Of a stretch of DNA of 64,000 nucleotides, positions 4,008-61,723 are shown in pieces (the stretch's first letter is position 1; every line of letters begins with the position of its first letter). The DNA lies in the NCBI GenBank assembly GCA_030645735.1, contig JAUSNP010000006.1, positions 196,095 to 260,094 on the forward strand. The letters are read 5' to 3'. Both the position numbers and the translations under genes were made by a program. The notes under the pieces were generated by a model. The model did no database searches and had not been told where the DNA came from. It saw nothing but the letters and a program-made list of their open reading frames with translations. Origin of the DNA: Candidatus Moraniibacteriota bacterium (GTDB lineage Bacteria; Patescibacteriota; Minisyncoccia; Moranbacterales; UBA2206).

Positions 4008-4019
4008 TTTGTAAATATT

Positions 4020-15375: not shown

Positions 15376-15427
15376 TTTTTACCCCCTATCAAGCCGGGTT
15401 TTCAGATACTTTTTAACTTTATGGACT

Positions 15428-15457
15428 TTCGACTTTATGGACTTATCATGCTATAAT
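15428..15457 (+). promoter_or_regulatory. candidate promoter (-35-like CGACTT, 17-nt spacer, extended -10 TGcTATAAT) giving a near-leaderless transcript for the SpoIID-like gene
   Basis: atgcTATAAT at 15449-15457, ATG at 15470; preceded by two GACTTTATGGACTT repeats. Confidence 0.45.
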
Positions 15458-18579: not shown

Positions 18580-18630
18580 AATATTCCAATCATAGCATAT
18601 TTTCACCGAATTGTTCAAAAATCCTCAAAT

Positions 18631-18666
18631 TCTGTAGGGGTTCTGTAGGGGTTTCCCTCCTACAGA
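18631..18666. repeat. REP palindromic element copy 1 (partial half-copy + full imperfect copy)
   Basis: tCTGTAGGGG + tCTGTAGGGGTTTCCctCCTACAGa immediately 3' of the RAYT stop codon. Confidence 0.8.
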
Positions 18667-19305
18667 TCACTCTTCCAGCAAATATCTTCTCATCTCACTT
18701 CTGCGTTGATTTATTTCTTTCGCGTTTATATCAACAAATTCACTATAATCACTCCTGTCTTTAAATTGACTTAAAATAATTTCTGAATTACATAATTTTT
18801 CAACACTATCATCCAAGTAGTTTTTCAAACTTGATCTAAATTCTCTTGAATTATGAATAATATTGTTGCCATTAACATAAGCTGACAGGTACAATAAATA
18901 TTCATTGCTATTTACATGCACAGCCTTGAATCTTCCTTGAAATAATGAACCACTTCTTTTGTTCCTGTGATTAAAATATCCTGTATAGCCACCGCTAATG
19001 CGTTTCATAAATTCAGATATACCGCCATCTCTCAACTGTTTTAATATGAAATGAAAATGATTTGGAAGTAAATTATAGGCAATTATCTCAACCAATGCAT
19101 CATTCTGTAGGGGTTTCACCCCTACAGAGTTTGTTTTACTTTTTATATATAAACTAATGACTGGCTCAATTTGATTAAATTCTCTTATTGATTTAAGAAA
19201 TCTTGAATAATCATATTTGTCCAAAAAAATATCTCGCTTCTCCACTCCGCGATTAAATATATGATAATATTCTCCATTTACAAACTCAAAAGAAAAATTT
19301 CCCAT
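18667..19305 (-). CDS. IS200/IS605-family Y1 (HuH) transposase, REP-associated tyrosine transposase (RAYT)-like, carrying an in-frame REP insertion
   Basis: N-term EYYHIFNRGVEKRDIF (YHV..RG..IF motif), HuH motif NHFHFIL, Tyr-containing helix YLLYLSAYVNGN; residues SVGVKPLQ are encoded by REP copy 2. Confidence 0.7.
   Translation of the reverse strand: MGNFSFEFVNGEYYHIFNRGVEKRDIFLDKYDYSRFLKSIREFNQIEPVISLYIKSKTNSVGVKPLQNDALVEIIAYNLLPNHFHFILKQLRDGGISEFMKRISGGYTGYFNHRNKRSGSLFQGRFKAVHVNSNEYLLYLSAYVNGNNIIHNSREFRSSLKNYLDDSVEKLCNSEIILSQFKDRSDYSEFVDINAKEINQRRSEMRRYLLEE
19105..19127. repeat. REP palindromic element copy 2 (inside RAYT ORF, in frame)
   Basis: CTGTAGGGGTTTCACCCCTACAG perfect 9-bp arms, 5-nt loop. 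Confidence 0.85.
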
Positions 19306-19327
19306 CTTTTTTGTTTTATTTTTATAT

Positions 19328-19349
19328 CTGTAGGGGTGAAACCCCTACG
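19328..19349. repeat. REP palindromic element copy 3 (degenerate right arm)
   Basis: CTGTAGGGGTGAAACCCCTACg followed by ttaCCCacac. Confidence 0.75.
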
Positions 19350-19372
19350 TTACCCACACATTATTATTTTTT

Positions 19373-19786
19373 TTAAAAACTCGTGAAAATTATAAATACC
19401 AGCCAAGCAAAAAGCAATGTCAAAACCAATAGCCCAACCAACCATATGATTAGAAAAAGAAACGCTGTTCTATTTAGCCAGATATGCTCTTTTAGAAATT
19501 TTGGCTTGTAATTTTTAAATCCCTTCCACAATCCCCCTGCAATGAAAATTGTATCTATTACAGGCCAAACAATGAGTATTATAAATCTAACAATACTATT
19601 GCGGGAAAAGTTAGTAGTTGAAGTCAACAACACAGATGCAACTAGAATATTAAATGCTATTGAACCCCACATAATCAAAGCCAACTTTCGCATGAAAACA
19701 AAAAGCAAAGCATTGGATATTGCGAACAAAACAAGCGCCAAAATCATAATATTGACCGTAAACTGATCCGGCCCTATATCACTCAT
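19373..19786 (-). CDS. small polytopic membrane protein (4 TM), hypothetical
   Basis: 137 aa, four hydrophobic segments; second gene downstream of the LCAT-like lipase gene on the same strand. Confidence 0.4.
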   Translation of the reverse strand: MSDIGPDQFTVNIMILALVLFAISNALLFVFMRKLALIMWGSIAFNILVASVLLTSTTNFSRNSIVRFIILIVWPVIDTIFIAGGLWKGFKNYKPKFLKEHIWLNRTAFLFLIIWLVGLLVLTLLFAWLVFIIFTSF

Positions 19787-19847
19787 ATTTTTACACTTAA
19801 TAATTAAACAAGTTAATCAAGCCTTATTTACTTTTTATTTCCTATAT

Positions 19848-19883
19848 CCGTAGGGGTTTCACCCCTACATTACCCCTACATTA
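19848..19883. repeat. REP palindromic element copy 4 (with duplicated right arm)
   Basis: CcGTAGGGGTTTCACCCCTACAttaCCCCTACAtta. Confidence 0.8.
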
Positions 19884-23300: not shown

Positions 23301-23686
23301 TCAATCGTGGCGGTTGGCGACATAAAACAACGCGGATTATATGCTCCGCCCTCTTCAAAAGTCAGTGGGATTCCAGCCAATTTGATTTTTTCTTCTTTGG
23401 TGCCTTGAGCAATGACATTTCCACTGATGGACAAGTGACGAAAAGCTAATTGCGTTCCTTTTTCAATAGTCAAAGTCACGCCCCAATTGACATAAATGTT
23501 TCCATAGTTAGATAAATCCGTACTATTGTTCCAAGTGGTGTTTTCACTGATATACAAATCTTCCAATGGCAAAACTTCGCCAGCTACAATATTTTTCGAC
23601 AAAGCCATGAGATCAATCCGCAAAGGACTGATGGCAAAGATAACGATAAAAATTATGACACCCATGTTTTTGATTGTCTTGTGCAT
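20309..23686 (-). CDS. large secreted multidomain protein with LCAT/PGAP1-like alpha/beta-hydrolase (lipase/acyltransferase) domain
   Basis: N-terminal signal/anchor MGVIIFIVIFAISPL; central PYDWRLS motif (LCAT-family hallmark) followed by lipase nucleophile elbow VTIVAHSNGG (A-H-S-x-G as in Bacillus LipA); N-terminal region with beta-helix-like NxxN repeats; acidic DDRDDDDDADRR near C-terminus. Confidence 0.6.
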   Translation of the reverse strand: MHKTIKNMGVIIFIVIFAISPLRIDLMALSKNIVAGEVLPLEDLYISENTTWNNSTDLSNYGNIYVNWGVTLTIEKGTQLAFRHLSISGNVIAQGTKEEKIKLAGIPLTFEEGGAYNPRCFMSPTATIEFSAPGDYVDDPESIFEFVEFSQMGDEFSYDTDSCPGLGMNNGLKDMFFPVAYAAPVNEAAPAMTLYSGRVKMSNCDFKNNAYADIKVETEYGEWNSQSYLFIENSNFQNNSQDTAVTAKVTKPDVYNALFENCFNECKLNYPDDYGIYGPICGGYCTNVAGSDPSFHDKTKVLLKSNWYGDPAGPEIESAPNVGGEKLIGDYTSESWSATEIENSVPSVTASGASNVLFLPGLEASRLYTDGVIGTENQLWEPNRDADVEKLFLDKNGKSLDPDVYTRDVLDEVNVSPLIGQKNIYNSFKADLEKWKNDDKIINDYVAMPYDWRLSLEDILTSGTFDGKNISYTQASISPYIVRELRRLAETSKTGKVTIVAHSNGGLLAKALTNKLGAEAESLIDKIVMVAVPQVGTPQAIGGILHGYDQGLPADWFPLLLAPKVARTLANNMPSAYNLLPSSAYFNGNGSSTSTPMISFENGSLTQSFINKYGNEIDNPTELHDFLLDSERKVSADSNDVVSPSSINAKLLGNAEDVHQALDDNWTVPASISVYQIAGFGEETLGTIKYWTGIECSEVFEGKCLAYRDKIQYTPDTVIDGDGTVVAPSALAMSANENVKRYWVDLDDYNIPVVRSIEHADILEVSELRSFIKDNILTQSSTSFPQFISDSKPSNSSEKRLHYILHSPLALSAHDTSGNEISASVSTIPGAIYKRFGEVQFISLSASVAHTVTLDGLAEGSFTLEMQEVENDAVVAKTTFAGVPSSDKAKVTMEVIDGTIQNASPLAVDFDGNSVIDFSLQPKVGETVMQPTADQTPPEARIFFDTQTNSMRVEGIDENPTTVTYVTSAISKKNSKYSDRERENERYVGKMTTATITDQAGNVTILKYTEKFVSHDRRVAVELNSISYNGVVTKLHDTMAKYNWSLNRKGATYSMFATNLRTSSSAIESHYRPKQNVTMIMTRPQELHDDRDDDDDADRRAIKQKLVGLIVPELTTKQGIVEIKY

Positions 23687-23846
23687 GTTTTTGTTTGTTT
23701 TTTATTTTTTTAGATATTAAAAAACCACGGAGTTACCCGCGGTCGATTGGCATAAAAATATCGCACAACACAAAAGCTCTCAGATATCCTGAAAAATTTC
23801 TAGCGACTATCACAGTGCGTCTTGTATTTTTGTTTTTCACACCTAA

Positions 23847-23875
23847 ATTATACTAGATGCTCATTATTTTGACAA
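23847..23875 (-). promoter_or_regulatory. sigma70-type promoter for the LCAT-like gene (minus strand: TTGTCA-17nt-TATAAT) embedded in palindrome TTGACAaggTGTCAA
   Basis: plus-strand attata 23847-23852 (= TATAAT on minus), 17-nt spacer, tgacaa 23870-23875 (= TTGTCA); palindromic 15-mer 23869-23883. Confidence 0.5.
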
Positions 23876-23924
23876 GGTGTCAAGAATTCATCATGACCCA
23901 AAGTTATCCACAGCCCATCTGATT

Positions 23925-23947
23925 CTGTAGGGGTGAAACCCCTACAG
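23925..23947. repeat. REP palindromic element copy 5
   Basis: CTGTAGGGGTGAAACCCCTACAG perfect, immediately 3' of the wzm stop. Confidence 0.85.
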
Positions 23948-23949
23948 AG

Positions 23950-24774
23950 CTAGATGTCCTCCGCGATCCGTGGAGCCATTTTTCGGTAGGACCAGATGCT
24001 GAAGGCGAAAGCGCCGAGCACGATGGAGATAAAGGCAGTGTATTGAGTGGAGCTGGCGAAGTGATTATTAATCAAAGATTCTTTGGTGAAGTGGATGATG
24101 AAGGCCAAAGGATTGAGCAGAATCAATGTGTGATATTTAACTGGCAAAGTTACTAAAGGATAGATGATGGGTGAAGCATACATGATGATCATGAGAAGCA
24201 CTTCCCAAATCATGGAAAGGTCACGGAATTTCACGTAGAGTGGTGCCGTTATCAGAGCAAAAGACAGGATTATAATATAAATGAAAACTGAGAACAGCAG
24301 AAATACGCCAATGGCAGCAAGACTTGGCATGAAACCCTTGAGAGCGAAAAAGAAAACAATCACGACTAGATTCATTAGGAATATCAAGGTGGCGTTGATA
24401 GTGGAAGCCAAAATGATGGTCCAACGCGGAACATAAATTTTGGTCACCAATTGTGATTTGCTCAACAGCGAATTCATGCCGGCACCGGTACCCTCAGCAA
24501 AAAAATAGAACATCATCAAAGAAACCAAAAGTTGCAAAGAATAGGTATCTGTTCCATCGACATTTCTTAGATTGAAAACTGAAGAGAAAACAAAATTCAA
24601 AATCGCAAAAGTCAAAAGCGGTTTCAAAAGCGCCCATAAATAGCCCAAAACACTGCCATGATAGCGCAGTTTGAAATCGGTTTTGGCTAGCATCCAAATT
24701 AGCTCTTTGTAATTCTCATGTTGTCTCATATAGAAGTCCATAAAGTCCGTAAAGCTTAAAGTCCATAAAGCCAT
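23950..24774 (-). CDS. wzm: polysaccharide ABC exporter permease (ABC-2 family) Wzm/TagG-like
   Basis: YKELIWMLAKTDFKLRYHGSVLGYLWALLKPLL ABC-2 signature start, 6 TM; first ~14 codons overlap the decamer repeat array so true start may be at a downstream Met. Confidence 0.8.
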   Translation of the reverse strand: MALWTLSFTDFMDFYMRQHENYKELIWMLAKTDFKLRYHGSVLGYLWALLKPLLTFAILNFVFSSVFNLRNVDGTDTYSLQLLVSLMMFYFFAEGTGAGMNSLLSKSQLVTKIYVPRWTIILASTINATLIFLMNLVVIVFFFALKGFMPSLAAIGVFLLFSVFIYIIILSFALITAPLYVKFRDLSMIWEVLLMIIMYASPIIYPLVTLPVKYHTLILLNPLAFIIHFTKESLINNHFASSTQYTAFISIVLGAFAFSIWSYRKMAPRIAEDI

Positions 24775-24833
24775 CGGTCTTATTTTTTAATACAGTTCAA
24801 AAGCTTAAGGTCCGAAAGCTATTGGTCTAGCTT
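24733..24833. repeat. phased AAAGTCC / GGACTTT decamer array (imperfect large palindrome) B
   Basis: AAGTCCATAAAGTCCGTAAAGCTTAAAGTCCATAAAG...AAGGTCCGAAAGC. Confidence 0.7.
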
Positions 24834-25178
24834 TTTGATAAAACCAGAAAGCATCTTAGAAATTTCAAATGATAAATTATATAATCTTGTGAATTCCTCC
24901 TCTTTAATATAGCCTAGATCCAAAGATAGATAAAGCATGGAACGAACCTCGCCACACGAGCCCTTGGCAATAAATAAAAAGTGTTTAAATTCTTTATCAC
25001 CTTTTCTCTCAAACCCCTCAGCGATATTGTTCATCACCGAAACTGCCGCTCTTTGAATTTGGTCTCTAAAAGAAAAGTCCCTATTCAATTTAAAAATATT
25101 ATAGATATCCAAAGTGAGCATGCGCGACTTTTGCCAAGCAATAATATCCTCAAATTTTTCTATTTTTATATTTTGCAT
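24819..25178 (-). CDS. four-helix-bundle protein (TIGR02436 / 23S rRNA intervening-sequence protein family; Avd-like fold)
   Basis: AWQKSRMLTLDIYNI...FRDQIQRAAVSVMNNIAEGFERKGDKEFKHFLFIAKGSCGEV matches the family consensus. Confidence 0.8.
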   Translation of the reverse strand: MQNIKIEKFEDIIAWQKSRMLTLDIYNIFKLNRDFSFRDQIQRAAVSVMNNIAEGFERKGDKEFKHFLFIAKGSCGEVRSMLYLSLDLGYIKEEEFTRLYNLSFEISKMLSGFIKKLDQ

Positions 25179-25182
25179 TGAT

Positions 25183-25222
25183 AGACTTTATGAACCTTAT
25201 GGACTTGATGGACTTTTGACTG
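25183..25222. repeat. decamer array C
   Basis: GACTTTATGAACCTTATGGACTTGATGGACTTTTGAC. Confidence 0.6.
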
Positions 25223-25224
25223 TC

Positions 25225-26298
25225 TTATACATTATCCATTGTTTTGTACCACTCTGGCATCATTTGAAAGACTTCAACTTGCCTTCTAACACCTTCTTCC
25301 ATATTCATTTTTGGCTCATAGCCTAGCATCTCCCTGGCCTTGCTAATATCAGCCGAAGAAACTACATCTCCTTTGTCACTTTCTACTAGTTTATATTTCA
25401 CCGGAGTACCCAAAACCTTGCCAATGATATCCAGCCAAAGTCTGATCGGCTGCGGATCAGATGTTCCAATATTGAACACATCAAATTTCGTCTTGTGATC
25501 TAGGAGTAATAACAAACCATCTACCTGATCATCGATATAAGTGCTGTCTTTAGCTGTGTCTAATCCCTTGCTACCATAAATAGAAATTTCTTTCCCATTG
25601 TAGGCAAAATTGATGGCGCGTTGCATGAACATGCCATACATTCTTTGCAATGGTCCATAAATTGGTCCGAAAATTCGGTCCACACACACATCCAATCCAT
25701 ATACCACCGAAGCTGCGTGGCACAAAACCTCTCCGGAAACTTTCGTGGCGCCATAAGGAGAAACGGCATGCATCACATCATCAGTTTCTGAAACTTTTTT
25801 GTCATCGCGATTGCCATAGACCGATGAAGATCCACCGAATACAAATTTCTTGGTGCCAAAATTTCGGCAGGCATCCAGCAAGGTCACCGTTCCCACCACA
25901 TTAACATTGGCATAGGTCACTGGTTTTTGTACTGACATCGGCACGCCACCCCAAGCCGCCAAATGAATGACAGCATCAATGCCTTCAGTCCTAAACATTT
26001 CATTCACCTTTTCCGCATCCGTAATGTCCATTTCATAGAATTTGAAGCTTCCAAGCTTGCCAGTTGGTTTCGGATAGTAACTTTCCATCTTTTCAAAAAC
26101 ATTTTGGATTTCATCCAATGGAGTTTCAATCGGCAAGCCAGCTAAAATATTTATCAAATCAACATTAAATTGCTTGCAGCGTCTTGGATAATATTCGTTG
26201 AAATTGTCGATACCCACTACATCATCTCCACGGCGAATCAATGCTCGTGAAACATAGTTGCCGATAAAACCTGCTGCACCCGTGACTAATACTTTCAT
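25225..26298 (-). CDS. NAD-dependent nucleotide-sugar epimerase (UDP-glucuronate/UDP-hexose 4-epimerase-like)
   Basis: MKVLVTGAAGFIGNYVSRALIRRGDDVVGIDNFNEYY Rossmann/extended SDR start, YGATK catalytic motif; ~55-aa insertion after the first beta-alpha unit. Confidence 0.75.
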   Translation of the reverse strand: MKVLVTGAAGFIGNYVSRALIRRGDDVVGIDNFNEYYPRRCKQFNVDLINILAGLPIETPLDEIQNVFEKMESYYPKPTGKLGSFKFYEMDITDAEKVNEMFRTEGIDAVIHLAAWGGVPMSVQKPVTYANVNVVGTVTLLDACRNFGTKKFVFGGSSSVYGNRDDKKVSETDDVMHAVSPYGATKVSGEVLCHAASVVYGLDVCVDRIFGPIYGPLQRMYGMFMQRAINFAYNGKEISIYGSKGLDTAKDSTYIDDQVDGLLLLLDHKTKFDVFNIGTSDPQPIRLWLDIIGKVLGTPVKYKLVESDKGDVVSSADISKAREMLGYEPKMNMEEGVRRQVEVFQMMPEWYKTMDNV

Positions 26299-26307
26299 AT
26301 AAATTTT

Positions 26308-26392
26308 AGTTCATAAAGTTCGTAAAGTTAAAGGTTCGTAAAGTGTCGACTTTAAAAAACCTTATAAACTTGATGAACTTTATAACTTCGAT
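26308..26392. repeat. decamer array D (palindromic: AAAGTTC arm / GAACTTT arm)
   Basis: AGTTCATAAAGTTCGTAAAGTTAAAGGTTCGTAAAGTGTCGACTTT...CTTGATGAACTTTATAACTTCG. Confidence 0.7.
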
Positions 26393-27567
26393 CTTAAATA
26401 ATTATAATATTCTTCGTTATGACTATTTTTGTTGGTGTATTTTTCTATGGTTTTTTCTTGAGCTTTTTTGCCAATTTCTTCTCGAAGATTAGCATCGACA
26501 ACCAACTTTTCCAATTTTTCAACCCATTCAGCCGTTGTTTTTGCTACATAGCCGTCAATTCCATCAGCGATAGCCTCAGAAAATGTCTGGTTGGCCACGG
26601 CCACGGTCGGCACACCTAGAATTCCAGCTTCAAAAAATTTCAATTCCGATTTGGCTTCACAAAATGGATCACCTGGTTCAAGTGGAGCTAGATTGATATC
26701 CACTTTGCTAATATTTTCCAAGTGTTTCTCCCAAGGCGCCAAGGGAAATTGTTCAATTCGATCTTGAAATTTGTTCAGAGCATTTTCAACTTCCAGTGGC
26801 CCCACCAATACAAGTCTGACTTGCGGATATTTCTCCATAATTATCATCAACGCCTCCGTGATTGTAGCAAAATCTTTATTGTGGCTCATTGTGCCAGAAA
26901 AATAACCTATGCGTATCTTTTTTTGGTTTTTGGTTTTTGGTTTTTGGTTTTTATGAATATTTTCTGCCACAGTCACATCATATTCGGTGAGTTTATTGGG
27001 CACAATAAAAACCTTCTTGCCATAACTTTCCAAAACTTTCGCCAAATAGGTTGTCGTGGTGGTGCAAACTTTTACATAATCATCCCTCAAAATTTCTTCG
27101 CCCACACCTTTTGCATATTGTTTCTTTTCAAAGAAACTCATTTTTTTATACATATCTGTGGCGTGCATATATTTCGTATCAAAAACCAAATCATCTGTTT
27201 CAAAGATAATTTCCTTGCCTTGTTTTTTCACTCGCTCCAACAATTTCTTGACGGTCGGGGTGACGAGGGTGCGATGAAAAACAAAAACCTTAAACTTACT
27301 GGCAAACAATGCCAGAAATGGATTGTCTTGAATCATCACTTCAGCCTTGATGCCATGAAAATTCAATTCCTCGGCAACTTTGTAGGCTCGATATTTCGCG
27401 CTATCACCTACACCGCCTGTAATAAACAACACATCGCCAGATTTAAAAGTGGATATTGTTTTCAAAAATGTTGCAAAATAATTCAACACGCGACGACCGC
27501 CTACCAGGATTCCATCTCTTCTAATCGCAGTAAAGGCCTTGCCGATTTTGATTAAAAATAAATTCAT
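26380..27567 (-). CDS. glycosyltransferase family 1 (GT4) carrying an in-frame (CCAAAAA)4 heptamer tract
   Basis: GT4 C-terminal LAPLEPGDPFCEAKSELKFFEAGILGVPTVAV; heptamer tract at 26918-26952 encodes KNQKPKTKNQKK; ATG at 27567 preferred (MNLFLIKIGKAF). Confidence 0.75.
   Translation of the reverse strand: MNLFLIKIGKAFTAIRRDGILVGGRRVLNYFATFLKTISTFKSGDVLFITGGVGDSAKYRAYKVAEELNFHGIKAEVMIQDNPFLALFASKFKVFVFHRTLVTPTVKKLLERVKKQGKEIIFETDDLVFDTKYMHATDMYKKMSFFEKKQYAKGVGEEILRDDYVKVCTTTTTYLAKVLESYGKKVFIVPNKLTEYDVTVAENIHKNQKPKTKNQKKIRIGYFSGTMSHNKDFATITEALMIIMEKYPQVRLVLVGPLEVENALNKFQDRIEQFPLAPWEKHLENISKVDINLAPLEPGDPFCEAKSELKFFEAGILGVPTVAVANQTFSEAIADGIDGYVAKTTAEWVEKLEKLVVDANLREEIGKKAQEKTIEKYTNKNSHNEEYYNYLRSKL
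26918..26952. repeat. heptanucleotide tandem repeat (TTTTTGG)4 inside coding sequence
   Basis: GG dinucleotides at 26925, 26932, 26939, 26946 with period 7. Confidence 0.85.
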
Positions 27568-27576
27568 AAAAATTTT

Positions 27577-27670
27577 AGTCCGTAAAGTCTGAAAGTTCTT
27601 AAAGTCGAAAGCTAACAATGCTTTATGGACTTTATGAACTTTATGGACTTTTGGACTTAGTCGACTTTTA
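27577..27670. repeat. decamer array E (palindromic)
   Basis: AGTCCGTAAAGTCTGAAAGTTCTTAAAGTCGAAAGC-taacaatg-CTTTATGGACTTTATGAACTTTATGGACTTTTGGACTTAGTCGACTTT. Confidence 0.75.
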
Positions 27671-28843
27671 ATTTGTTATCTTTTTATAAATCTCATTTAT
27701 CTTTTCCGCCGAAGCTTCCCAGCTGAAATCCACGGCGCGCTTTTTGTTGTTGGCGCCTTTTTCCTGCGCTTCTTGTGGATTTTGCGCAAAATGCAAAATG
27801 CCTTTTGCAATGCCAGCAGCCGTTGATTCACAGAAATAACCGCCGTCATCCAAATATTTGCGATTATTATCTTTGTCAAAACATACCACCGGCAAACCCG
27901 CTGACATATAATTGAGCATCTTGCCACTGGCTTGATTGGTGTCCGTGTCTTTGGGATCCACTGCCACATCGGCCACGCAATTGAATTTCGGCAATTCAAA
28001 ATAGTTCAAAGGACTCACCACGCGAACAAATTTTTCCAATTGATTTTCTTTGACAAATTCTCTCACATGTTGATCTGGAAAACCGCCAATCAGGAAAAAC
28101 ACATTCGGATTTTGTTCCACTGTCGGCTTGATGGCTGCAAAAAGATGAGCGACGCCTTTGTTGGGCACCAAACCGCCAGAATATACAACCACAAACTTGT
28201 CTTCTGGAATTTCCATTTCTCTGCGCAACTCGCTCTTGCTTTGTTTCAAATTAAAACTCGCTAGACTTGTTCCGTCTAGCATCACTTCAGCACCCTCTCC
28301 GCCTCTAGCTGATTTGATTGGCTCCAAGCCCTCCCAAGAACTGACAATCGCCCAATCACCCCGACCATTGATAAATCTTTCAATAATTCTGAAAAGCCAT
28401 TTCAAACCTTTTTTCAAATAACCATGCGAAACCATCTCGCCTGTCAGACTGCCATGAAAATCAGCCACCAATTTGATGTCGCGCCAAAAAAGCAATTTCT
28501 GCACAATCCAGCCAATCAAAACACCTTCGTGCAAATGACCATGAATCACATCCGGTTTTTGCGTACGCGCTAAAAACAGAACTTTTTTAATAAGCGCCAA
28601 ATCCAAAATAATTTTTTGCCAATCTGGACCAGCTTCCAGCTTCTTATACCAAAAAAGTAGTCGCCTGATTCGTCGGACATCAATCTTGGTATCAATTTCA
28701 GCTGGAATGTCCTTGCCGATATGATAGGTGGCGATTGTAATTTGATTGCCCAATTTTTCCAAGGCCAGCGCTTCTTCTAGAATCCGAATGTGGGTTCCGC
28801 GATCAGCAAAAAATGGAGTTGGAGCAACGACTAAAATTTTCAT
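27668..28843 (-). CDS. glycosyltransferase family 1 (GT4)
   Basis: MKILVVAPTPFFADRGTHIRILEEALAL start (ATG 28843); C-term LVPNKGV...GGFPDQ...AGLPVVCFD GT4 features; upstream 43 codons of the ORF track lie in the repeat array. Confidence 0.8.
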   Translation of the reverse strand: MKILVVAPTPFFADRGTHIRILEEALALEKLGNQITIATYHIGKDIPAEIDTKIDVRRIRRLLFWYKKLEAGPDWQKIILDLALIKKVLFLARTQKPDVIHGHLHEGVLIGWIVQKLLFWRDIKLVADFHGSLTGEMVSHGYLKKGLKWLFRIIERFINGRGDWAIVSSWEGLEPIKSARGGEGAEVMLDGTSLASFNLKQSKSELRREMEIPEDKFVVVYSGGLVPNKGVAHLFAAIKPTVEQNPNVFFLIGGFPDQHVREFVKENQLEKFVRVVSPLNYFELPKFNCVADVAVDPKDTDTNQASGKMLNYMSAGLPVVCFDKDNNRKYLDDGGYFCESTAAGIAKGILHFAQNPQEAQEKGANNKKRAVDFSWEASAEKINEIYKKITN

Positions 28844-28935
28844 AAAGTTTATAAAATTCTTAAAGTTTATACGGTCAAAAGAGTACGGAATCCAACACTT
28901 TACGAACTTGGTGGACTTTATGAACTTTTGACTCT
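28841..28935. repeat. decamer array F
   Basis: CATAAAGTTTATAAAATTCTTAAAGTTTATACGGTCAAAAG...CTTTACGAACTTGGTGGACTTTATGAACTTTTGACTC. Confidence 0.65.
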
Positions 28936-28965
28936 GCCAACTAATTCTACCCCATAAATTCTCGT

Positions 28966-30807
28966 TTGGCAAAAGGCTGTTTAGGCTATATAATTACACC
29001 AATGATCAAATTTAAAATACCCGAGGTAAATTTAGATAAATTCCAGCTATTCACGGCTTTTGTCCTTTTTTGGATAGGCTTGGGATGGCTTGGCTTGGCC
29101 CTTTCACTTTTAGGGATTTTTTATAATGCAATTTTAGTTAGTTATATCCTCTTGGGTATTATATTCCTAGCTTATTTGATCAATTTCAATCAGACCAAGA
29201 TTGCCATCAATTTTCGTTTTTTTCTGATTTTCATCCTAACCTTGATTTCGATTTTCATTTTCTCATTCTATACTACGCCGACCATCTTTTCCGGACGCGA
29301 CCAAGGCTCACTCAGTGAAGCTGCTATCCGCCTGGCGCAAAATCATCATTTGTCTTTTGCTTCAGTTGCTTCCCAAGAATTTTTCAAAATCTATGGCGCT
29401 GGACCAGCATTGAATTTCCCTGGCTTTCATTATACTGCGCAGGGCAACCTTTCCACACAATTTCCGCTGGGCTACATTTCTTGGTTAGCAATTTTCTATT
29501 CCCTGATAGGTCTCAATGGTTTCGTGCTGGCCAACAGCATCACCTTTGCCATTTTTATTTTTTCTTTCTACCTAGTCGCCCGCTATTATTTGCGCGCCTC
29601 TTCAGCCATCATGGCAACTCTTCTGATTTTAAGCTCTTTTATTTTTGCTTGGTTTTTCAAATTCACGCTCAGTGAAAACCTCGCGATGATGCTGACTTGG
29701 TTTGGAATCTATGAGTTCGTGCTGTTTACTAAAAATAAGTCGCGTTTTTATCTTCTAGCGTCTTTGACCGCTTTCACTCTGCTTGTTTTCACTCGCGTAG
29801 AGGCTTTGGGATTTTTGGCGGTCGTCACTGCAATGCTACTCATCAAATACAAAGATTGGAAATATCTATTCTTTGTTGTAATTGGCAAAAAAATTCTGCT
29901 CGTTGCTGGCGGGTTTTTAGTATTATATTTTTTCAACTTGGCACTTGATAGCTCATCATATTATTCAATGTTGAAAGGCATCCTCAGTCCGTTCATTTCT
30001 CTGGGCTCTGGACTTAAAGATTATTCGTCAGCAGATTCTGTGCCATTTTTGGCCACCTCCTTTTATGTGCTCAAAGTTTTCTCAGCCTACGCGCTGTTCA
30101 ATTTCTTGCTATTTGGCATCATCGGATTTATTTATTTATGGCGCCACAAAAAATTTGAAATTTTGGTGCCATTTCTGATTATCCTGCCAACCTTTGCCTA
30201 CATCATACACCCCAGCATTTCAGCTGATCATCCTTGGATGTTGCGCCGCTTTGTTTTTTCCATCATTCCCGTCAGCATTCTTTATGCCGTTTGGTTTTTT
30301 GATCACTTCTTCAAGAAAAGAATGTATTTCTATTTTGTTATAGTCCTGCTCATTGCCACCAACCTGATGGTTTTTGTGCCCTTTCTGACAATCTCGCCCG
30401 ACAAAAATCTGTTGCCACAAATTGAAAAAATTTCCGAAAACTTTGTTGAATCAGACTTGATTTTAGTTGATCGCGATGCCACCGGTGATGGTTGGTCAAT
30501 GATGACTGGGCCGTTGAATTTCTTGTTCGACAAACAAGCAGTCTATTTTTTCAATCCCAAAGATTTGGCAAAGATTGATCAGAAAAAATTCAGTGCCATC
30601 TATTTCATCATTCCTGACAACAAATTAGACTTCTACCGTCAAGGCGGAATTTTGCAAAGACTAGTGCCTGTTCAAGATTATTCAATTGAAAACAAAATGC
30701 TCAGCCTGAAGACCGGCGAGAAACAAGAAATGTTTAGCGCGCCAATCGAGTTGCCAAAAATGCAAGATAACGCAGTTTATGGTAAAATTTATTTATTAAA
30801 AAACTAG
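28966..30807 (+). CDS. polytopic membrane protein (~12 TM + C-terminal soluble domain), putative GT-C-fold glycosyltransferase or O-antigen ligase-like
   Basis: Hydrophobicity pattern; first extracytoplasmic loop with SGRDQGS acidic motif; C-terminal ~200-aa non-membrane domain; alternative ATG at 29002. Confidence 0.35.
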   Translation: MAKGCLGYIITPMIKFKIPEVNLDKFQLFTAFVLFWIGLGWLGLALSLLGIFYNAILVSYILLGIIFLAYLINFNQTKIAINFRFFLIFILTLISIFIFSFYTTPTIFSGRDQGSLSEAAIRLAQNHHLSFASVASQEFFKIYGAGPALNFPGFHYTAQGNLSTQFPLGYISWLAIFYSLIGLNGFVLANSITFAIFIFSFYLVARYYLRASSAIMATLLILSSFIFAWFFKFTLSENLAMMLTWFGIYEFVLFTKNKSRFYLLASLTAFTLLVFTRVEALGFLAVVTAMLLIKYKDWKYLFFVVIGKKILLVAGGFLVLYFFNLALDSSSYYSMLKGILSPFISLGSGLKDYSSADSVPFLATSFYVLKVFSAYALFNFLLFGIIGFIYLWRHKKFEILVPFLIILPTFAYIIHPSISADHPWMLRRFVFSIIPVSILYAVWFFDHFFKKRMYFYFVIVLLIATNLMVFVPFLTISPDKNLLPQIEKISENFVESDLILVDRDATGDGWSMMTGPLNFLFDKQAVYFFNPKDLAKIDQKKFSAIYFIIPDNKLDFYRQGGILQRLVPVQDYSIENKMLSLKTGEKQEMFSAPIELPKMQDNAVYGKIYLLKN

Positions 30808-30813
30808 GAGATT

Positions 30814-30896
30814 AGTCAAAAGTCCATCAAGTCAATAAAGTCCGTAAAGTTATAGGAACTTTCGACTTTACGGACTTTGGACTTTACGGACTTTGA
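30814..30896. repeat. decamer array G (palindromic)
   Basis: GTCAAAAGTCCATCAAGTCAATAAAGTCCGTAAAGTTATAGGAACTTTCGACTTTACGGACTTTGGACTTTACGGACTTTGAAC. Confidence 0.75.
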
Positions 30897-32236
30897 ACAT
30901 TATGACTCTGGATTTAACCGCTCACATCAAACTCGACAAAAAAAATCTTCGACTCTACCGCATCCTGCAGGTTATTTTTTATTTATCCGCCATTTCTTTG
31001 GCAACCTATTTTGCTATCCGCATTCTTTTTCCAACCTCCTATTTCATATTTGATTTTAACAAGCCCTTTGCCAAAAGCAACAATATTTATGATATGCATG
31101 ATAACACCAAGCTTGTGCCCGGAAAAGGAATATTGCCCGCCAATGCAACTTTGAATTTCAATGCTTCTCTCTTTGATTTCTTTTCTAAAGCGCTAGTGAC
31201 TTTTTCCCTGGATAAAAAATCCGCACCACTTCAATCTGGTTCAGTTCTGGTTAAAAAATCTTTTCGAGCTTTTCTCTATCCAGATGGAGCCATCATGGGC
31301 TTCAAGGATGGCACGCTCCTCAAAAGCGAAGGAAATTATTATATAGTTTTTAATGGCAAGATGCATAAGTTTGCCAAGCCGAATTTGGTGACTGAACTGG
31401 GTTATGCGCCAGAAGCTTTTCGAGAGGTCACACCAATTGAAATCAATTATAACAAAAAAGGTGATTCCATCACCAAAGCGCAATATCCCAACAAAACTTT
31501 TTTTAGAGTTAATGATGAATATTATTTATTGCAAAGCGAACACTTACAAAAATTTATCAGCGCCAACGCTTTCCTCAGCCAATATGATTCCAATCAAGCC
31601 ATCGTGAAAGATACCAGCTTTCTATCAACCTTCAAGCCGTCGAATAATTTGATTGGTTTTGCCGATGGCTCGATCCTGTCATATGGTGACACAATTTATA
31701 TTACTAACGGTAAAAATATTCTGCCCGTCGATAGTCCTGAAACCTTTCTTAGCAAGGGCTATGCCTGGGAAGATGTCATTCCAGTCAGTCCGGAAGAAAT
31801 CGCCCTCTATGTCAAAGAGAAAAATTTCACCATAGCCAGCTTGCATTCCAACGGTACAATTTTCAAGACCAGCGAAAGTGGCAATCATTATTTGATTCAA
31901 GATGGCAAAAAAAGACTCTTGCCTTCAACCAATGTCGTGGCTTCCTGGCTCAAGAAAAATCCAATCATGGTTTCACGCGATAGTCTCAGTCTGACAAATT
32001 CCTGCCTGCTCAAAAAAGACGCGCTCAGCGCCAATTCATATTCCTGTGAAATTCCAATTGCCAATATGCAAAATTTGCTTGGCAGTGACTATGAATTTTT
32101 TGCCAAATCAAGCTCTGCCATTCAAATCGATACTGTCAACATTGAATTCAAAAAAGATGTCACCCGCGACAATTTATTGCTAACTCTCAGCCGCATATTT
32201 AATCGCGTAAAAAACAATTATGTTCCCACAAATTAA
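30893..32236 (+). CDS. membrane-anchored (single N-terminal TM) hypothetical extracytoplasmic protein
   Basis: TM LQVIFYLSAISLATYFAIRILF then 400-aa soluble region; no recognisable motifs. Confidence 0.4.
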   Translation: MNIMTLDLTAHIKLDKKNLRLYRILQVIFYLSAISLATYFAIRILFPTSYFIFDFNKPFAKSNNIYDMHDNTKLVPGKGILPANATLNFNASLFDFFSKALVTFSLDKKSAPLQSGSVLVKKSFRAFLYPDGAIMGFKDGTLLKSEGNYYIVFNGKMHKFAKPNLVTELGYAPEAFREVTPIEINYNKKGDSITKAQYPNKTFFRVNDEYYLLQSEHLQKFISANAFLSQYDSNQAIVKDTSFLSTFKPSNNLIGFADGSILSYGDTIYITNGKNILPVDSPETFLSKGYAWEDVIPVSPEEIALYVKEKNFTIASLHSNGTIFKTSESGNHYLIQDGKKRLLPSTNVVASWLKKNPIMVSRDSLSLTNSCLLKKDALSANSYSCEIPIANMQNLLGSDYEFFAKSSSAIQIDTVNIEFKKDVTRDNLLLTLSRIFNRVKNNYVPTN

Positions 32237-32624
32237 ATTCAGTGCCGGACCAAAAGTAGTCATTCTATACAAACTTCTCAATGATAGTCTATTGGTTATG
32301 CTAACATTTTTCATGCTTACCCTGCTGGCTGAAGGTGCATTGCCAGGAATCATTTCCTCCCACATTGGACTCTACAAAATTGTAATTGCCATTCTTGTGA
32401 ATATTTTAGCTATCACAGCGATTGGAAAAATCATCAAGGCGCCTGAAAACGCAACCAACAAAAAAATAGTAGAGACGCGATTAATCGCGTCTCTACTTAT
32501 CATCTGCGCGCTATTGCTTTTCAACAGTCTGCTCAAGCTCAATATATACTTGAATATTTTTATTCTAATCACACTCTTTGTGATTAGCTATTTTTTGATT
32601 AGAGTTTTTCAAGAAGAAAAATAA
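32220..32624 (+). CDS. small membrane protein (3-4 TM), hypothetical
   Basis: hydrophobic segments; overlaps end of preceding gene by 17 nt. Confidence 0.3.
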   Translation: MFPQIKFSAGPKVVILYKLLNDSLLVMLTFFMLTLLAEGALPGIISSHIGLYKIVIAILVNILAITAIGKIIKAPENATNKKIVETRLIASLLIICALLLFNSLLKLNIYLNIFILITLFVISYFLIRVFQEEK

Positions 32625-32704
32625 GTCCATAAAGTCTTTAAAGTCAAAAGTCCGAAAGCACTGGAGCTTTTGACTTTATGGACTTGACGGACTTTAAGGA
32701 CTCT
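32624..32704. repeat. decamer array H (palindromic)
   Basis: AAGTCCATAAAGTCTTTAAAGTCAAAAGTCCGAAAGCactggaGCTTTTGACTTTATGGACTTGACGGACTTTAAGGACTC. Confidence 0.75.
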
Positions 32705-33812
32705 CTATGTATTCCAAAGTCTCCTTGGCGCATTTCTCCCAAGAGAATTTTTGCAACTGCTGTTTGCCTTTGACAATCAATTCGGCGCGCAATTTTTCAT
32801 CCGTCAAAAGCCGCTCCATCTGTTCACTCATCTCAGAAACATTCTCAGCGTCAAAATACATTGCCGCGTCGCCACCCACTTCTCGCAAGGATGAATTGTC
32901 CGCGGTCAAAAGTGGCACGCCTGCCGCAAAGGCTTCCAGAACCGTGATGCCAAAACCCTCATAAAGCGAGGGGTGGGCAAAGACAGTGGCCCCCCGGAAC
33001 AAGTGCCCTATATCGCAAAATTTGAGCCTACCGGGCATCACAATGTCCTCACTATATGGGCTTTGCTTGGCCTTTTTCTCAATATTTTCGCAGAGCCAGG
33101 CCTTTTCTCCAGCCAAAACCAGTTTAATGCTCGATTTTGAGCGAGTTTTATAGGCGTCATACGCCTCAATCAATCTTTCAATGTTTTTTCGCGGTTGCAA
33201 GGCGCCCGTATATAAAATATAATCACCCACAATTCCCGCTTCTTTTTTAGCTCTTTCTTCTTCCGAAAAATCACGCGGCTGCGAAAAAACTCCCTCAGTG
33301 AAGCCGTGATAAATGACTTTGATTTTGTCTGCTGCGACTTCTGGATAGAATTTCAAGATGTCTTGCTTGGTTGATTGCGAAACGGCAATAATTTTGTCAG
33401 AATTTCTGATTGAATAGTCCGCAAAAAAATTCAACTTGCGTAAATCTTTTTTGGTGAAATATTGCGGAAAATATTTGAAAGCCAAATCATGGATTGTGAT
33501 GACAGTTTTCAAATTCTTGCGACGCACCAACGGCAAAGCTGCCATCGGCATCCACAAAACATCTGGCGCATCTTTCCACAACTCTGCCGCAAAACAAATT
33601 TGGGTCCACAAAAAAGGAAAGTTTTTTTGAATGATTTTATAATTGAAAAATGCAGGCGGAGTCAGTTCTAGATTGAAATCATTTTTATGATATAACAAAA
33701 ACTCGCTGTCAGAATCTAATTGGCCAAAATGTTTCAGCAAATTGAGAATATAGACGCGAGTTCCGTCGATGCGCTTGTGATCAAGATCAGCAACCTGAAT
33801 TGCTATTTTCAT
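32694..33812 (-). CDS. glycosyltransferase family 1 (GT4)
   Basis: FAHPSLYEGFGITVLEAFAAGVPLLTADNSSLREVGGDAAMYFD EX7E motif. Confidence 0.85.
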   Translation of the reverse strand: MKIAIQVADLDHKRIDGTRVYILNLLKHFGQLDSDSEFLLYHKNDFNLELTPPAFFNYKIIQKNFPFLWTQICFAAELWKDAPDVLWMPMAALPLVRRKNLKTVITIHDLAFKYFPQYFTKKDLRKLNFFADYSIRNSDKIIAVSQSTKQDILKFYPEVAADKIKVIYHGFTEGVFSQPRDFSEEERAKKEAGIVGDYILYTGALQPRKNIERLIEAYDAYKTRSKSSIKLVLAGEKAWLCENIEKKAKQSPYSEDIVMPGRLKFCDIGHLFRGATVFAHPSLYEGFGITVLEAFAAGVPLLTADNSSLREVGGDAAMYFDAENVSEMSEQMERLLTDEKLRAELIVKGKQQLQKFSWEKCAKETLEYIESP

Positions 33813-40004: not shown

Positions 40005-40099
40005 CCCGGGCTTGACCCGGGATCTACTCTGCGTTTCACTGAATTAAATTTAGATTCGCAATTACAGTGAGCAGATTCCGGCTCAAGGCCGGAATGACA
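39999..40099. repeat. GC-rich 101-bp extended palindromic element with TGTCATCCCGG / CCGGAATGACA terminal inverted repeats (MITE-like)
   Basis: hairpins CCCGGG-cttga-CCCGGG and CCGGC-tcaag-GCCGG, central TCACTG...CAGTGA; a related copy lies at 43504-43576. Confidence 0.55.
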
Positions 40100-40108
40100 G
40101 TTTATTTA

Positions 40109-42764: not shown

Positions 42765-42848
42765 AGTCTATAAAGCTGAAAGTCTATAAAGTCTATAAAG
42801 CATTTTGCTTGACGGACTTGATGGACTTTACGACTTTATGGACTCTGC
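42765..42848. repeat. decamer array I (palindromic)
   Basis: CTATAAAGCTGAAAGTCTATAAAGTCTATAAAGC-attttgc-TTGACGGACTTGATGGACTTTACGACTTTATGGACTC. Confidence 0.75.
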
Positions 42849-43396: not shown

Positions 43397-43469
43397 ATAT
43401 ATTTTAGGCTTATTTTGCTTAATTCACTGCTTCCCCATTTTACCTCAAATCAGCTTTTTTGACAAAAAA

Positions 43470-43500
43470 ACCGCCTTGCCTGCGCAAAACGGTTTTTTTA
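43470..43500. terminator. bidirectional terminator
   Basis: A-run, AACCG...CGGTT hairpin, T7. Confidence 0.5.
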
Positions 43501-43503
43501 TAT

Positions 43504-43576
43504 TGTCATTCCGGCCTCCCGCCTCGCTTCGACGAGCAATCGTCTTTGCGAGTCGAGGCGGGTGAGCCGGAATCCA
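43504..43576. repeat. GC-rich palindromic element, second copy of the TGTCATTCCGG...CCGGAAT family
   Basis: TTCCGGC/GCCGGAA outer stem, CCCGCCTCG/CGAGGCGGG inner stem. Confidence 0.5.
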
Positions 43577-43585
43577 CTCAAAAGC

Positions 43586-46749: not shown

Positions 46750-46964
46750 GGTGTCTCTCCTGAAATCTTATTGGCACGATTGCGCGAACACACCCCTACG
46801 GCGGTCCATCAGCAATCGGCGAATTCTTCACTACAATATATATCATCCGAATTCATAACTGAGTATTCGGTTGTCAAGGGACATAAAAATCTATAATTTC
46901 ACAGCGTCCGTCAAAAAACGACCGACACTGAATCGAACATAGATAGAACTTTAAGGAACCTCGT

Positions 46965-46993
46965 ATTCTAGCAAAAATTTTGGTTTTTGTCAA
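46965..46993 (-). promoter_or_regulatory. sigma70-type promoter (minus strand TTGACA-17nt-TAGAAT with TGc extended -10) for the 464-aa secreted protein gene; GGCTCAAAttGGCTCAAA direct repeat immediately upstream of -35
   Basis: plus-strand attcta 46965-46970 and tgtcaa 46988-46993; repeats at 46997-47020. Confidence 0.5.
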
Positions 46994-47037
46994 TGGCTAG
47001 GCTGTTTTGAGCCAATTTGAGCCTCCGAATGGCTATG

Positions 47038-47160
47038 CTTAATAAAATCACTGTCATTGCGAATGAGTTCCGCCGCAGAACGACTGTGTGGCAATCTCAA
47101 GTTTCAGTGCATAGAACAAAGGGATTGCCACACTCCTTTCAGTCGCTCGCAATGACAAAT
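47038..47160 (-). terminator. long compound hairpin + U-tract, probable terminator of the sortase operon
   Basis: outer stem GTCATTGCGA/TCGCAATGAC (47055-64/47148-57), inner stem GTGTGGCAATC/GATTGCCACAC; minus-strand downstream GAUUUUAUU. Confidence 0.45.
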
Positions 47161-47165
47161 AAATG

Positions 47166-49936: not shown

Positions 49937-49969
49937 TTTTTTAACTTTAAAAACTTTATGGACTTTTGG

Positions 49970-61051: not shown

Positions 61052-61723
61052 CTATTTATACATATTCAAAAAAGTCACAACCTCATTGAAATCTCTAGCA
61101 ATAAAATCAGCTTGAGAAACAACCTTGTCGCGAAAAACATTCTCCACATAGGCAATGAACTTGTGAGCCATGCCAGCTTCTCGAATTTGAAAATCCGTCC
61201 AGCCATCCCCAATAGCCACAATTTCACCGTCCAGCGCCAACGCCTCCAATTGTCTAACTTTTCCATTTTCCATCGCCAAAAAGTTTCGCTCATCAAATCC
61301 AATGATTTTCCCAGCTTCATCAAAAACAAAATCATTGGCCAATACATTTTCACCCTTGATTCCAAATTCAGCCACCACTGGCACAATGAAATCACGAAAT
61401 CCTCCGGAAATTATAAAAATATTTTCTGAGTTTTCTTGAAACCATTTTTTATTTTCCAAAAAAGATTGCGAGATATTGTCTTTCAAATATTGCACCAATT
61501 CCTGCAAATGATCTTTCGTCGCTGGCAAAACTGCAAATCGCATATGCAAAGACTGTGGAAATGAAATTTTTCCTTCCATTCCAAGATCAGTGATATCCGC
61601 AATGTTTTTGGCAATTTCATTTTTGCGTGGATTTCCTTGCAACGCAATATCCGCTAAATCACACAATGATTCGCTTTTCACAAAAGTACTATCAAAATCA
61701 ATGATAATCTTTTTAATTTTCAT
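61052..61723 (-). CDS. HAD-superfamily hydrolase, phosphoserine-phosphatase-like
   Basis: motif I IIDFDST, motif III/IV VAIGDGWTDF. Confidence 0.7.
   Translation of the reverse strand: MKIKKIIIDFDSTFVKSESLCDLADIALQGNPRKNEIAKNIADITDLGMEGKISFPQSLHMRFAVLPATKDHLQELVQYLKDNISQSFLENKKWFQENSENIFIISGGFRDFIVPVVAEFGIKGENVLANDFVFDEAGKIIGFDERNFLAMENGKVRQLEALALDGEIVAIGDGWTDFQIREAGMAHKFIAYVENVFRDKVVSQADFIARDFNEVVTFLNMYK

Follow-up and report, generated by a model that had tools for sequence, protein, structure and literature searches.

Ribosomal intervening sequences (IVSs) of Leptospira, Coxiella, Brucella and Azospirillum lie in helix 25 or 45 of the 23S rRNA, depend on the transcription of their host, and are built from terminal inverted repeats that form a stem, with arms of tandem short repeats and, in the loop, an open reading frame (ORF) for an S23p protein. 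In the Coxiella IVS, three to four tandem GACAGAT heptamers occupy the stem region, S23p lies in the loop, and RNase III cuts the stem (PMC4990558). Here we analyzed a 64,000-nt stretch of DNA (the window) from Candidatus Moraniibacteriota bacterium (GenBank assembly GCA_030645735.1, contig JAUSNP010000006.1, positions 196,095 to 260,094, forward strand), in which tandem AAAGTCC/GGACTTT-type arrays form palindromes between genes of a glycan locus. We think it reasonably likely that these arrays are the arms of a family of IVS-like palindromic cassettes that reside in operons, are co-transcribed with them and are probable substrates of RNase III. The full-length form carries a gene of the S23p family (PF05635) in its loop, and the short form is a bare hairpin. 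The window elements share with ribosomal IVSs the protein family, the apparent dependence on host transcription, and stem-forming arms of tandem short repeats; they differ in lying between protein-coding genes (Rfam found no rRNA in the window), in having AAAGT 9-mer and 7-mer units that are conserved across phyla, and in that most window copies have no ORF.

Neisseria Correia elements (Correia repeat enclosed elements, CREE, or Neisseria miniature insertion sequences, NEMIS) and other hairpins of the miniature inverted-repeat transposable element (MITE) type are also short, palindromic, intergenic and strain-variable, and can donate promoter hexamers. CREE are co-transcribed with neighbouring genes; their terminal repeats are 26 bp long, and they also carry an IHF site and a TA duplication. 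They are not known to contain tandem sub-repeats, to be associated with a protein gene or to occur outside a single genus. Their sequence is unrelated to that of the window hairpins, which have inverted arms but no visible duplication and, in the cassette, no transposase. RNase III binds CREE/NEMIS and then either cleaves them or is blocked (PMC2649163), and by analogy CREE appear to be the best functional counterpart of the gene-less hairpins described here.

Tandem 7-nt intergenic units are also known from the short tandemly repeated repetitive (STRR) arrays of cyanobacteria and the TAACTGA arrays of Beggiatoaceae, Cyanobacteria and Bacteroidetes, which often end just upstream of a start codon, are patchy across phyla and have so far had no mechanism (PMC4679880). 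These were described as direct repeats, whereas the window arrays are paired inverted arms; the cyanobacterial PF05635 genes that we examined are nevertheless flanked by STRR-like heptamers. Finally, Avd, the accessory protein of diversity-generating retroelements (DGRs), has a fold homologous to that of the PF05635 protein and offers a precedent for its binding a hairpin: it is a pentameric, positively charged four-helix-bundle barrel that binds an RNA stem-loop via flipped-out bases in the crevices between protomers (bioRxiv 10.1101/2023.10.23.563531).

Results

A PF05635 gene enclosed by paired arrays

Each element has a 5' arm of 4-5 tandem AAAGTYYRT (9 nt) or AAAGTYR (7 nt) units, a loop that is either 4-16 nt long or a 360-nt ORF, and a 3' arm that is the reverse complement of the first. 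The gene-carrying cassette occupies 24731-25224 on the minus strand. A preliminary description of this DNA had listed the arrays at 24733 and 25183 as separate spacers; we found that both belong, as its two arms, to a single palindrome of 490 nt around an ORF at 24819-25178. In mRNA sense, the 5' arm (25179-25224) consists of AAAGTCC/AAGGTTC/AAAGTCT units and stops 3 nt before the ATG of this ORF, and the region that follows the ORF (24731-24818) comprises the 3' arm (24731-24775) and a partial arm duplication of 48 extra nucleotides (24776-24818), which was revealed by alignment with a related locus, L002. A repeat search found the arms to be 86% complementary and 431 nt apart. When a 506-nt minus-strand RNA was folded, both arrays paired in the minimum free energy and centroid structures alike (25179-25224 with 24734-24770), leaving the ORF as the loop.

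The loop ORF encodes a 119-aa protein (intervening-sequence protein, IVP) of the S23p type, an Avd-like four-helix bundle, which matched PF05635 (23S_rRNA_IVP) over profile positions 1-106 of 106 (E = 2.9e-36, 124.3 bits vs. a cut-off of 33.8) and TIGR02436 (E = 4.5e-35, 120.2 bits vs. a cut-off of 24). The RxxxSxxxNxxE motif named for this protein family (PMC3936711) is seen in the translation as RAAVSVMNNIAE. The nearest solved relatives found by phmmer were PDB 2GSC (5.4e-11) and 2RLD, each deposited with 5 chains. Compared with L002, dN/dS was 0.05, which indicates that IVP is under strong purifying selection, whereas S23p is decaying in Coxiella. A PF05635 gene in the loop between paired inverted arms is the architecture of the ribosomal IVSs.

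Two related identities were considered and rejected. The protein did not match the bAvd model, while PF05635 matched strongly; and we saw no DGR context, as scanning 48 of the window ORFs (all except six: 8-487, 61052-61723, 61720-62610, 62683-63960 and small internal calls) gave no reverse transcriptase, and no template/variable repeat was found in the window. Viral contigs scanned with the IVP protein gave no relative.

The cassette's 3' arm stops 1 nt before the wzm ATG at 24729. The overlap between an array and the wzm start, as first reported, holds for the longest ORF call (23950-24774) and disappears when the ATG of the orthologue, at 24729, is used. Note that automatic gene calls run into the arrays here (wzm at 23950-24774 being called as 274 aa, not 259 aa) and also in L001 (4408-5232), and that the L002 epimerase call (3844-4830) was extended through the 5' arm; this suggests that ORFs adjoining these elements are systematically over-extended by gene callers.

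Arrays and gene-less hairpins in the window

AAAGTCC occurs 25 times in the window (8.2 ± 2.5 expected; 0 of 100 shuffles reached 25), and the density of AAAGT/ACTTT is 11.9 per kb in intergenic vs. 3.9 per kb in coding DNA (Fisher p = 6e-12). All ten spacers named in the preliminary description indeed carry arrays of 3-5 units per arm, far beyond chance, and arrays were found in 10 of the 36 window spacers of at least 30 nt. That nearly every spacer of the glycan locus would carry one was borne out for the sub-cluster at 24.7-32.7 kb (7/7) but not at 1.9-15.4 kb, where short AT-rich spacers with no arrays separate the glycan genes. The reported arm order also stood: AAAG-type units come first and reverse-complement CTTT-type units second in every palindrome. 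Because the two strands of such a palindrome read identically, every transcript has a purine-rich 5' arm, (AAAGUCCAU)n. On the contrary, the reported unit spacing of 10-11 nt, and with it the helical phasing, was wrong: direct counts in the window gave a mode of 9 nt, plus 7 and 8, Tandem Repeats Finder returned a period of 9 or 16 (= 9+7) for every window array and never 10-11, and the 71 related loci described below likewise gave 9, 7 and 8 in all but 5 cases.

The gene-less hairpins share their units, their arm order and their stop-to-start placement with the gene-carrying cassette. Five of them form segmented helices of 30-40 bp on the transcribed strand (z = -5.1 to -7.4). On the minus strand, these are the hairpin at 26308-26387 in the GT1/epimerase spacer (AAAGTTC subfamily, AAAGTCGACACTTT centre, z = -5.1), where the GT1 stop codon lies inside the first unit; that at 27577-27657 in the GT4/GT1 spacer (AAAGTCC subfamily, -30.5 kcal/mol, z = -7.4); and that at 42765-42844 between rmlC (dTDP-4-dehydrorhamnose 3,5-epimerase) and a dehydratase gene (z = -6.7). 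On the plus strand, the hairpin at 30815-30898, between a 601-aa membrane-protein gene and a 444-aa ORF, holds 16 contiguous base pairs (-35.5 kcal/mol, z = -6.7). The fifth, at 32625-32701, sits at a convergent junction and folds on both strands (z = -5.4 on the plus and -6.1 on the minus strand). These five are long imperfect hairpins; the three other gene-less arrays are decayed or incomplete: a palindrome at 28829-28934 in a divergent spacer, in the 5' leader of a minus-strand operon, has arms that are only 74% complementary (z = about -1 to -1.9; the array listed at 28841); a solitary 3'-type arm of ACTTT units at 15409-15445 (plus strand; listed at 15414), in the wzt/SpoIID-like divergent spacer, has no fold; and neither has a degenerate three-unit remnant arm at 49937-49969 (minus strand; listed at 49951), which lies in a non-glycan context between the genes for a DUF5656 protein and an HtrA-like protease. 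The solitary arm is overlapped by a promoter-like site with an extended -10, TCGACT-17-TG-TATAAT at 15429-15457, so the half-array reported beside an extended -10 is real.

No hairpin matched Rfam 15 at the gathering threshold, the sole match with E<=1 being a chance miRNA-precursor hairpin (E = 0.38). Gene-less palindromes also occur near IVP cassettes of other phyla (e.g. L009, L032, L043, L045, L056 and L059). In addition, the IVP ORFs of L128 (10003-10341), L035, L058, L060 and L065 are broken by stops or frameshifts while their flanking arrays are kept; such copies are perhaps on the way to becoming gene-less hairpins, unless the breaks are errors of assembly.

PF05635 genes and their arrays across phyla

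The IVP protein has more than 8000 homologues, of which the best 120 are 69-99% identical and come from Patescibacteria wherever a source is named, among them P0001, from a Candidatus Moranbacteria metagenome-assembled genome, which is 99% identical. A scan of genome contigs widened the relatives to many other phyla at 59-77% identity, and one-genome-per-species contigs provided 71 usable cassette loci from Patescibacteria, Bacteroidota, Spirochaetota, Nitrospirota, Pseudomonadota and others. Across these 71 loci, the 100 nt upstream of the IVP ORF held a mean of 3.9 AAAGT and the 100 nt downstream 3.5 ACTTT, vs. a background of about 0.2 per 100 nt and about 0.4 in the opposite orientation, and at least two units stood on each side in 56/71. 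The consensus units were AAAGTYYRT and AAAGTYR, with a mode of 4-5 per arm, and were spaced at 9 (206 cases), 7 (120), 8 (41) or 10-11 nt (5).

Cognate arms paired more strongly than non-cognate ones (-34.8 vs. -27.0 kcal/mol; 55/72 above the median rank, p = 8e-6), which shows that the two arms of a locus co-evolve and do not just have a motif in common. Although synonymous sites of the IVP gene are saturated between phyla (pS 0.8-0.9), the AAAGT core persists, always on the 5' arm. This argues for purifying selection on the sequence and not on pairing alone, and runs against the earlier proposal that selection on the arrays is structural rather than sequence-specific.

More distant PF05635 genes had the same arm-gene-arm layout with other 7-9-mer units. 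The 5' and 3' arms, respectively, consist of GGGAAAA and TTTTCCC on a Nostoc plasmid, AAGGTTCA and TGAACCTT on a Riemerella plasmid, GGTGACA and TGTCACC between cas6 and cas4 in Anabaena, GAGGAGATAA and its complement between cas10 and cmr3 in Picosynechococcus, and GGACAGA and TCTGTCC inside the 23S rRNA gene of Azospirillum, a true IVS. At this last locus (L092; Azospirillum lipoferum plasmid AZO_p2, 13992-15130), the PF05635 ORF is unannotated, the arrays lie within apparent 23S rRNA sequence, and the GGACAGA/TCTGTCC units resemble the GACAGAT heptamers of Coxiella. On the cyanobacterial plasmids L089, L090 and L091, PF05635 genes lie within CRISPR-cas operons and are flanked by lineage-specific heptamer arrays; those of Pseudanabaena (L090) comprise about 16 direct AAAAGCT units upstream and AAAAGCC units downstream, in the same orientation and not inverted. 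IVP genes inside cas operons have been noted before and were read as possible cas-associated functions (PMC3936711); the flanking arrays suggest that they are interlopers.

Placement between genes and transcription

ORF coverage of the flanks places 80 related cassettes, with few exceptions, between ORFs. They were co-oriented with the upstream neighbour in 67/69 and with the downstream neighbour in 57/67 cases, and when ORFs were called more crudely, from stop to stop, not one cassette ran against both of its neighbours. The spacers are filled by the arrays: the median gap between the upstream stop and the IVP ATG is 45 nt, and that between the IVP stop and the ATG that follows is 61 nt. The upstream stop is typically fused to, or within, the first unit (TAA|AGTCC, TAA|GTCCAT, TAG|AAAGTT, TGA|GTCCAT, RTAAAGT and also TGA|GTCC), while the last unit ends in ACTAA or ACTTT with an AU-rich tail 5-15 nt before the next ATG, which sometimes lies inside that unit, as in ACTTTATGAAC. 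By direct reading, most units hold a stop codon (RTAAAGT, TGAAAGT, TAGAAAGT), and because units of 9 and 7 nt are mixed, these stops are distributed among the reading frames; we infer that an arm would quickly end any upstream reading frame, on either strand.

The 136 neighbouring proteins matched 173 Pfam families, among which those of ABC exporters recur modestly (ABC2_membrane and ABC_tran, 7 each); from this diversity, the element is not glycan-specific. Synteny of IVP with wzm was seen in the window, L002, L025 and L128.

Promoter-like sites were not enriched in the region (30 vs. 23.9 ± 4.5 expected). Good ones lie outside the arrays, at 28966-28994 (plus strand) and 28972-28944 (minus strand) in the divergent spacer, outside 28829-28934, which places the decayed palindrome of that spacer in the 5' leader; a consensus promoter scan flagged one solitary arm and two arrays with weak matches. 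None of 17 terminator-like matches in 23500-33500 is an array. Thus, among the roles suggested in the preliminary description, that of an intercistronic mRNA stem-loop fits, given the stop-to-start position, the co-oriented genes, the promoters outside the arrays and the 30-40-bp transcript hairpins, whereas that of an intrinsic terminator does not, as no array is terminator-like.

Comparison with orthologous glycan loci

About 70 of 72 loci orthologous for the GT4 gene had no adjacent array, and most had none within 6 kb. The closest relative, L093, is 79% identical in nucleotide sequence over 7.4 kb. Its hairpins stand at GT4|GT1 and orf444|orf613 and are 85-90% identical to the window's GT1|epimerase hairpin, and are thus more alike than the flanking DNA, which is 79% identical; it has no hairpin at GT1|epimerase and no IVP gene, and its convergent junction holds a GC-rich hairpin of the terminator type in place of the 32625-32701 type. 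With L002, by comparison, the window has the IVP cassette and the divergent-spacer palindrome in common, while the GT4|GT1 hairpin (27577-27657) is a clean presence/absence indel, both genes overlapping at TAATG in L002. Such non-orthologous placement, together with the presence/absence differences, points to a family that is dispersed, copy-like and probably mobile, and that is no ancestral control element of the glycan locus.

Two further observations concern the same comparison. The L093 spacer at 5905-5995, orthologous to the window's divergent spacer at 28844-29001, contains a different palindrome with ATGTTAA/GCTAAC-type units. The hairpin-bounded epimerase slot (25225-26298 in the window, 3844-4830 in L002, 8476-9432 in L093) encodes in the window a product of 35-38% aa identity to those of the two relatives, while the flanking wzm is 88-91% and GT4 69-90% identical, which indicates gene replacement at this slot.

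Other features of the window

A 212-aa Y1_Tnp gene (18667-19305), which resembles the transposases associated with repetitive extragenic palindromic (REP) elements, lies within CTGTAGGGGT(GAAA)ACCCCTACAG hairpins (region 18619-19880 and about 23920-23949), copies of which occur in four neighbouring spacers. Together they look like a unit of REP sequences and a REP-associated tyrosine transposase (RAYT) that is unrelated to the AAAGT arrays. Membership of the arrays themselves in a REP/RAYT system was rejected, as they do not flank the Y1_Tnp gene.

A perfect heptamer repeat, TTTTTGG x 4.7 (100% match, 26920-26952), lies within the GT1 ORF (26380-27567, minus strand); a change by one unit in either direction would put the ORF out of frame, which makes the repeat a candidate site of slipped-strand phase variation. 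The long spacers at 40005-40108, 43397-43585 and 46750-47165 hold other palindromes, which are GC-rich (GTCATTCCGGC...GCCGGAATGAC and GTCATTGCGA...TCGCAATGAC) and unrelated to the AAAGT family. A SAM (S-adenosylmethionine) riboswitch (RF00162, 50 bits) at 581-706 lies upstream of the S-adenosylmethionine synthetase gene (768-1814).

Discussion

We propose that the element, having no promoter of its own, would be transcribed within its host operon, and that its arms would pair in the transcript into a segmented, imperfect helix of 30-40 bp. By analogy with the ribosomal IVSs, RNase III would cut this helix, releasing the loop (IVP mRNA or nothing) and splitting the polycistronic mRNA at each spacer. 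The related Patescibacteria locus L003 includes a gene for RNase III; none was seen among the window ORFs scanned.

Several observations weigh against this account of an IVS-like, mobile cassette. The helices are AU-rich, with internal loops every 5-7 bp, and are possibly poor RNase III substrates. No target-site duplication was seen at the cassette boundaries or at the one clean filled/empty pair, whose sequences are too diverged to be sure; the cassette has no transposase, integrase or reverse transcriptase, and the 48 scanned window ORFs include no integrase or reverse transcriptase. The word mobile describes a distribution, and gene conversion or recombination could give the same pattern. 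The decayed and solitary arms suit a neutral or selfish element, and speak against a function that the host needs. Complementarity of the arms is weak in about one fifth of the loci. Finally, within the same protein clade, L062 has TTAGGGA and L076 CTAAGTA units, and the arrays of L014 and of Pseudanabaena L090 are direct instead of inverted; these exceptions weaken any strict code between protein and repeat.

We also entertain, tentatively and as something we would not bet on, a more specific extension in which the tandem AAAGU units are docking registers for a pentameric IVP, the 4-5 units per arm matching five protomers, such that the gene-carrying cassette would be autonomous and the bare hairpins non-autonomous. 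IVP would then act in trans on all hairpins, steering RNase III processing, mRNA fate or spread. As Avd grips its stem-loop via flipped-out bases, and the arms here form helices of 5-7 bp that are broken once per unit, binding of IVP to the repeats is conceivable, if speculative.

Alternatively, the arrays could be host-selected intercistronic RNA elements, similar to REP sequences or bacterial interspersed mosaic elements (BIMEs), that stabilise or differentially process the glycan cistrons, with the PF05635 gene as an incidental passenger. We regard this as unlikely, even though the arrays are intercistronic and form strong folds, an array is present in each of the 7 spacers of the 24.7-32.7 kb sub-cluster, and PF05635 cassettes recur beside wzm/wzt exporters, both in the counts of ABC2_membrane and ABC_tran (7 each among 136 neighbours) and in the IVP-wzm synteny shared by the window, L002, L025 and L128. 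Such elements should not be absent from about 70/72 orthologous loci, or non-orthologous where hairpins do stand at orthologous junctions; nor does host selection account for the decayed and solitary arms, for 173 neighbour families that are mostly non-glycan, or for the other glycan genes of the window, which have no arrays. A stabilising function is a possible secondary, domesticated role, unsupported as the reason for the arrays' existence.

A dispersed, copy-like, intergenic distribution and a palindromic structure would also be expected of non-autonomous transposons (MITEs or REP-like elements) moved in trans, e.g. by a Y1 enzyme of the IS200/RAYT type, with PF05635 as cargo, and a Y1_Tnp/RAYT-like gene is indeed found in the window at 18667-19305. 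We consider this quite unlikely: that gene is flanked by the other hairpin family, CTGTAGGGGT..ACCCCTACAG, and not by AAAGT arrays, the 25 Pfam families that the 136 cassette neighbours match most often do not include Y1_Tnp, target-site duplications were not observed, and a tight linkage of arrays to PF05635 that spans phyla is unexpected for cargo.

That the palindromes are recombination sites bounding exchangeable glycan-gene cassettes, whether attC-like or hot spots of homologous recombination, seems very improbable. Imperfect palindromes do separate single genes, and the epimerase slot does hold non-orthologous genes in relatives (35-38% aa identity vs. 88-91% for wzm); however, the 48 window ORFs scanned include no integrase, conserved core sites of the attC type are lacking, palindromes also stand at divergent and convergent junctions, and mosaic glycan loci are common without such sites. 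An integron attC array as such was rejected on two of these grounds, the lack of an integrase in the scanned ORFs and the palindromes at divergent and convergent junctions. Hardly credible, finally, are roles at the DNA level, be it curvature from phased A-tracts, promoter modules that are UP-like or donate a -35, or arrays of operators for a locus-specific glycan regulator, as raised in the preliminary description: the units do contain TTGACT-like hexamers, the solitary arm gives the -35 of the site at 15429-15457 and two arrays contain weak promoter-like matches, but curvature and UP elements need a 10-11-nt period where the actual one is 9/7, promoter-like sites are not enriched, most arrays are internal to operons, with the next ATG only 5-15 nt away, and a regulator of this locus is hard to square with arrays that are not conserved in about 70/72 orthologous glycan loci and stand beside unrelated genes (173 neighbour families) in many phyla.

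The heptamers of Coxiella, ribosomal IVSs that carry an S23p ORF and the existence of many orphan four-helix-bundle genes were already known. In the literature, within a search that reached few subscription journals, such that an earlier description is possible, we found no rule that PF05635 genes lie between inverted 7-9-mer arrays, no phylum-spanning AAAGT version in operon spacers, no gene-less derivatives or stop-to-start fit, no AAAGTCCATAAAGT-type strings, no link of STRR or heptamer arrays to S23p, and no account of four-helix-bundle genes in the candidate phyla radiation.

S23p/IVP proteins and ribosomal IVSs have been without an assigned function since the early 1990s, intergenic tandem heptamers are an equally old puzzle, and the annotation 'four helix bundle protein' stands on thousands of genes with no context given. 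We suggest that IVSs, intergenic heptamers and orphan four-helix-bundle genes are probably one phenomenon. The IVS-like cassette, which looks selfish and would leave gene-less hairpin copies behind, explains why IVP-type genes are found within cas and polysaccharide operons without belonging there, and annotators should be warned that gene calls are extended into the arrays. If the docking of IVP on the repeats were true, it would unite IVSs, orphan genes in cas and glycan operons, cyanobacterial heptamers and RNA binding by the Avd of DGRs, and would define a phylum-spanning class of operon-resident intervening elements. In the reduced genomes of Patescibacteria, intercistronic structure and the mosaicism of surface-glycan loci could stem in large part from elements of this kind.

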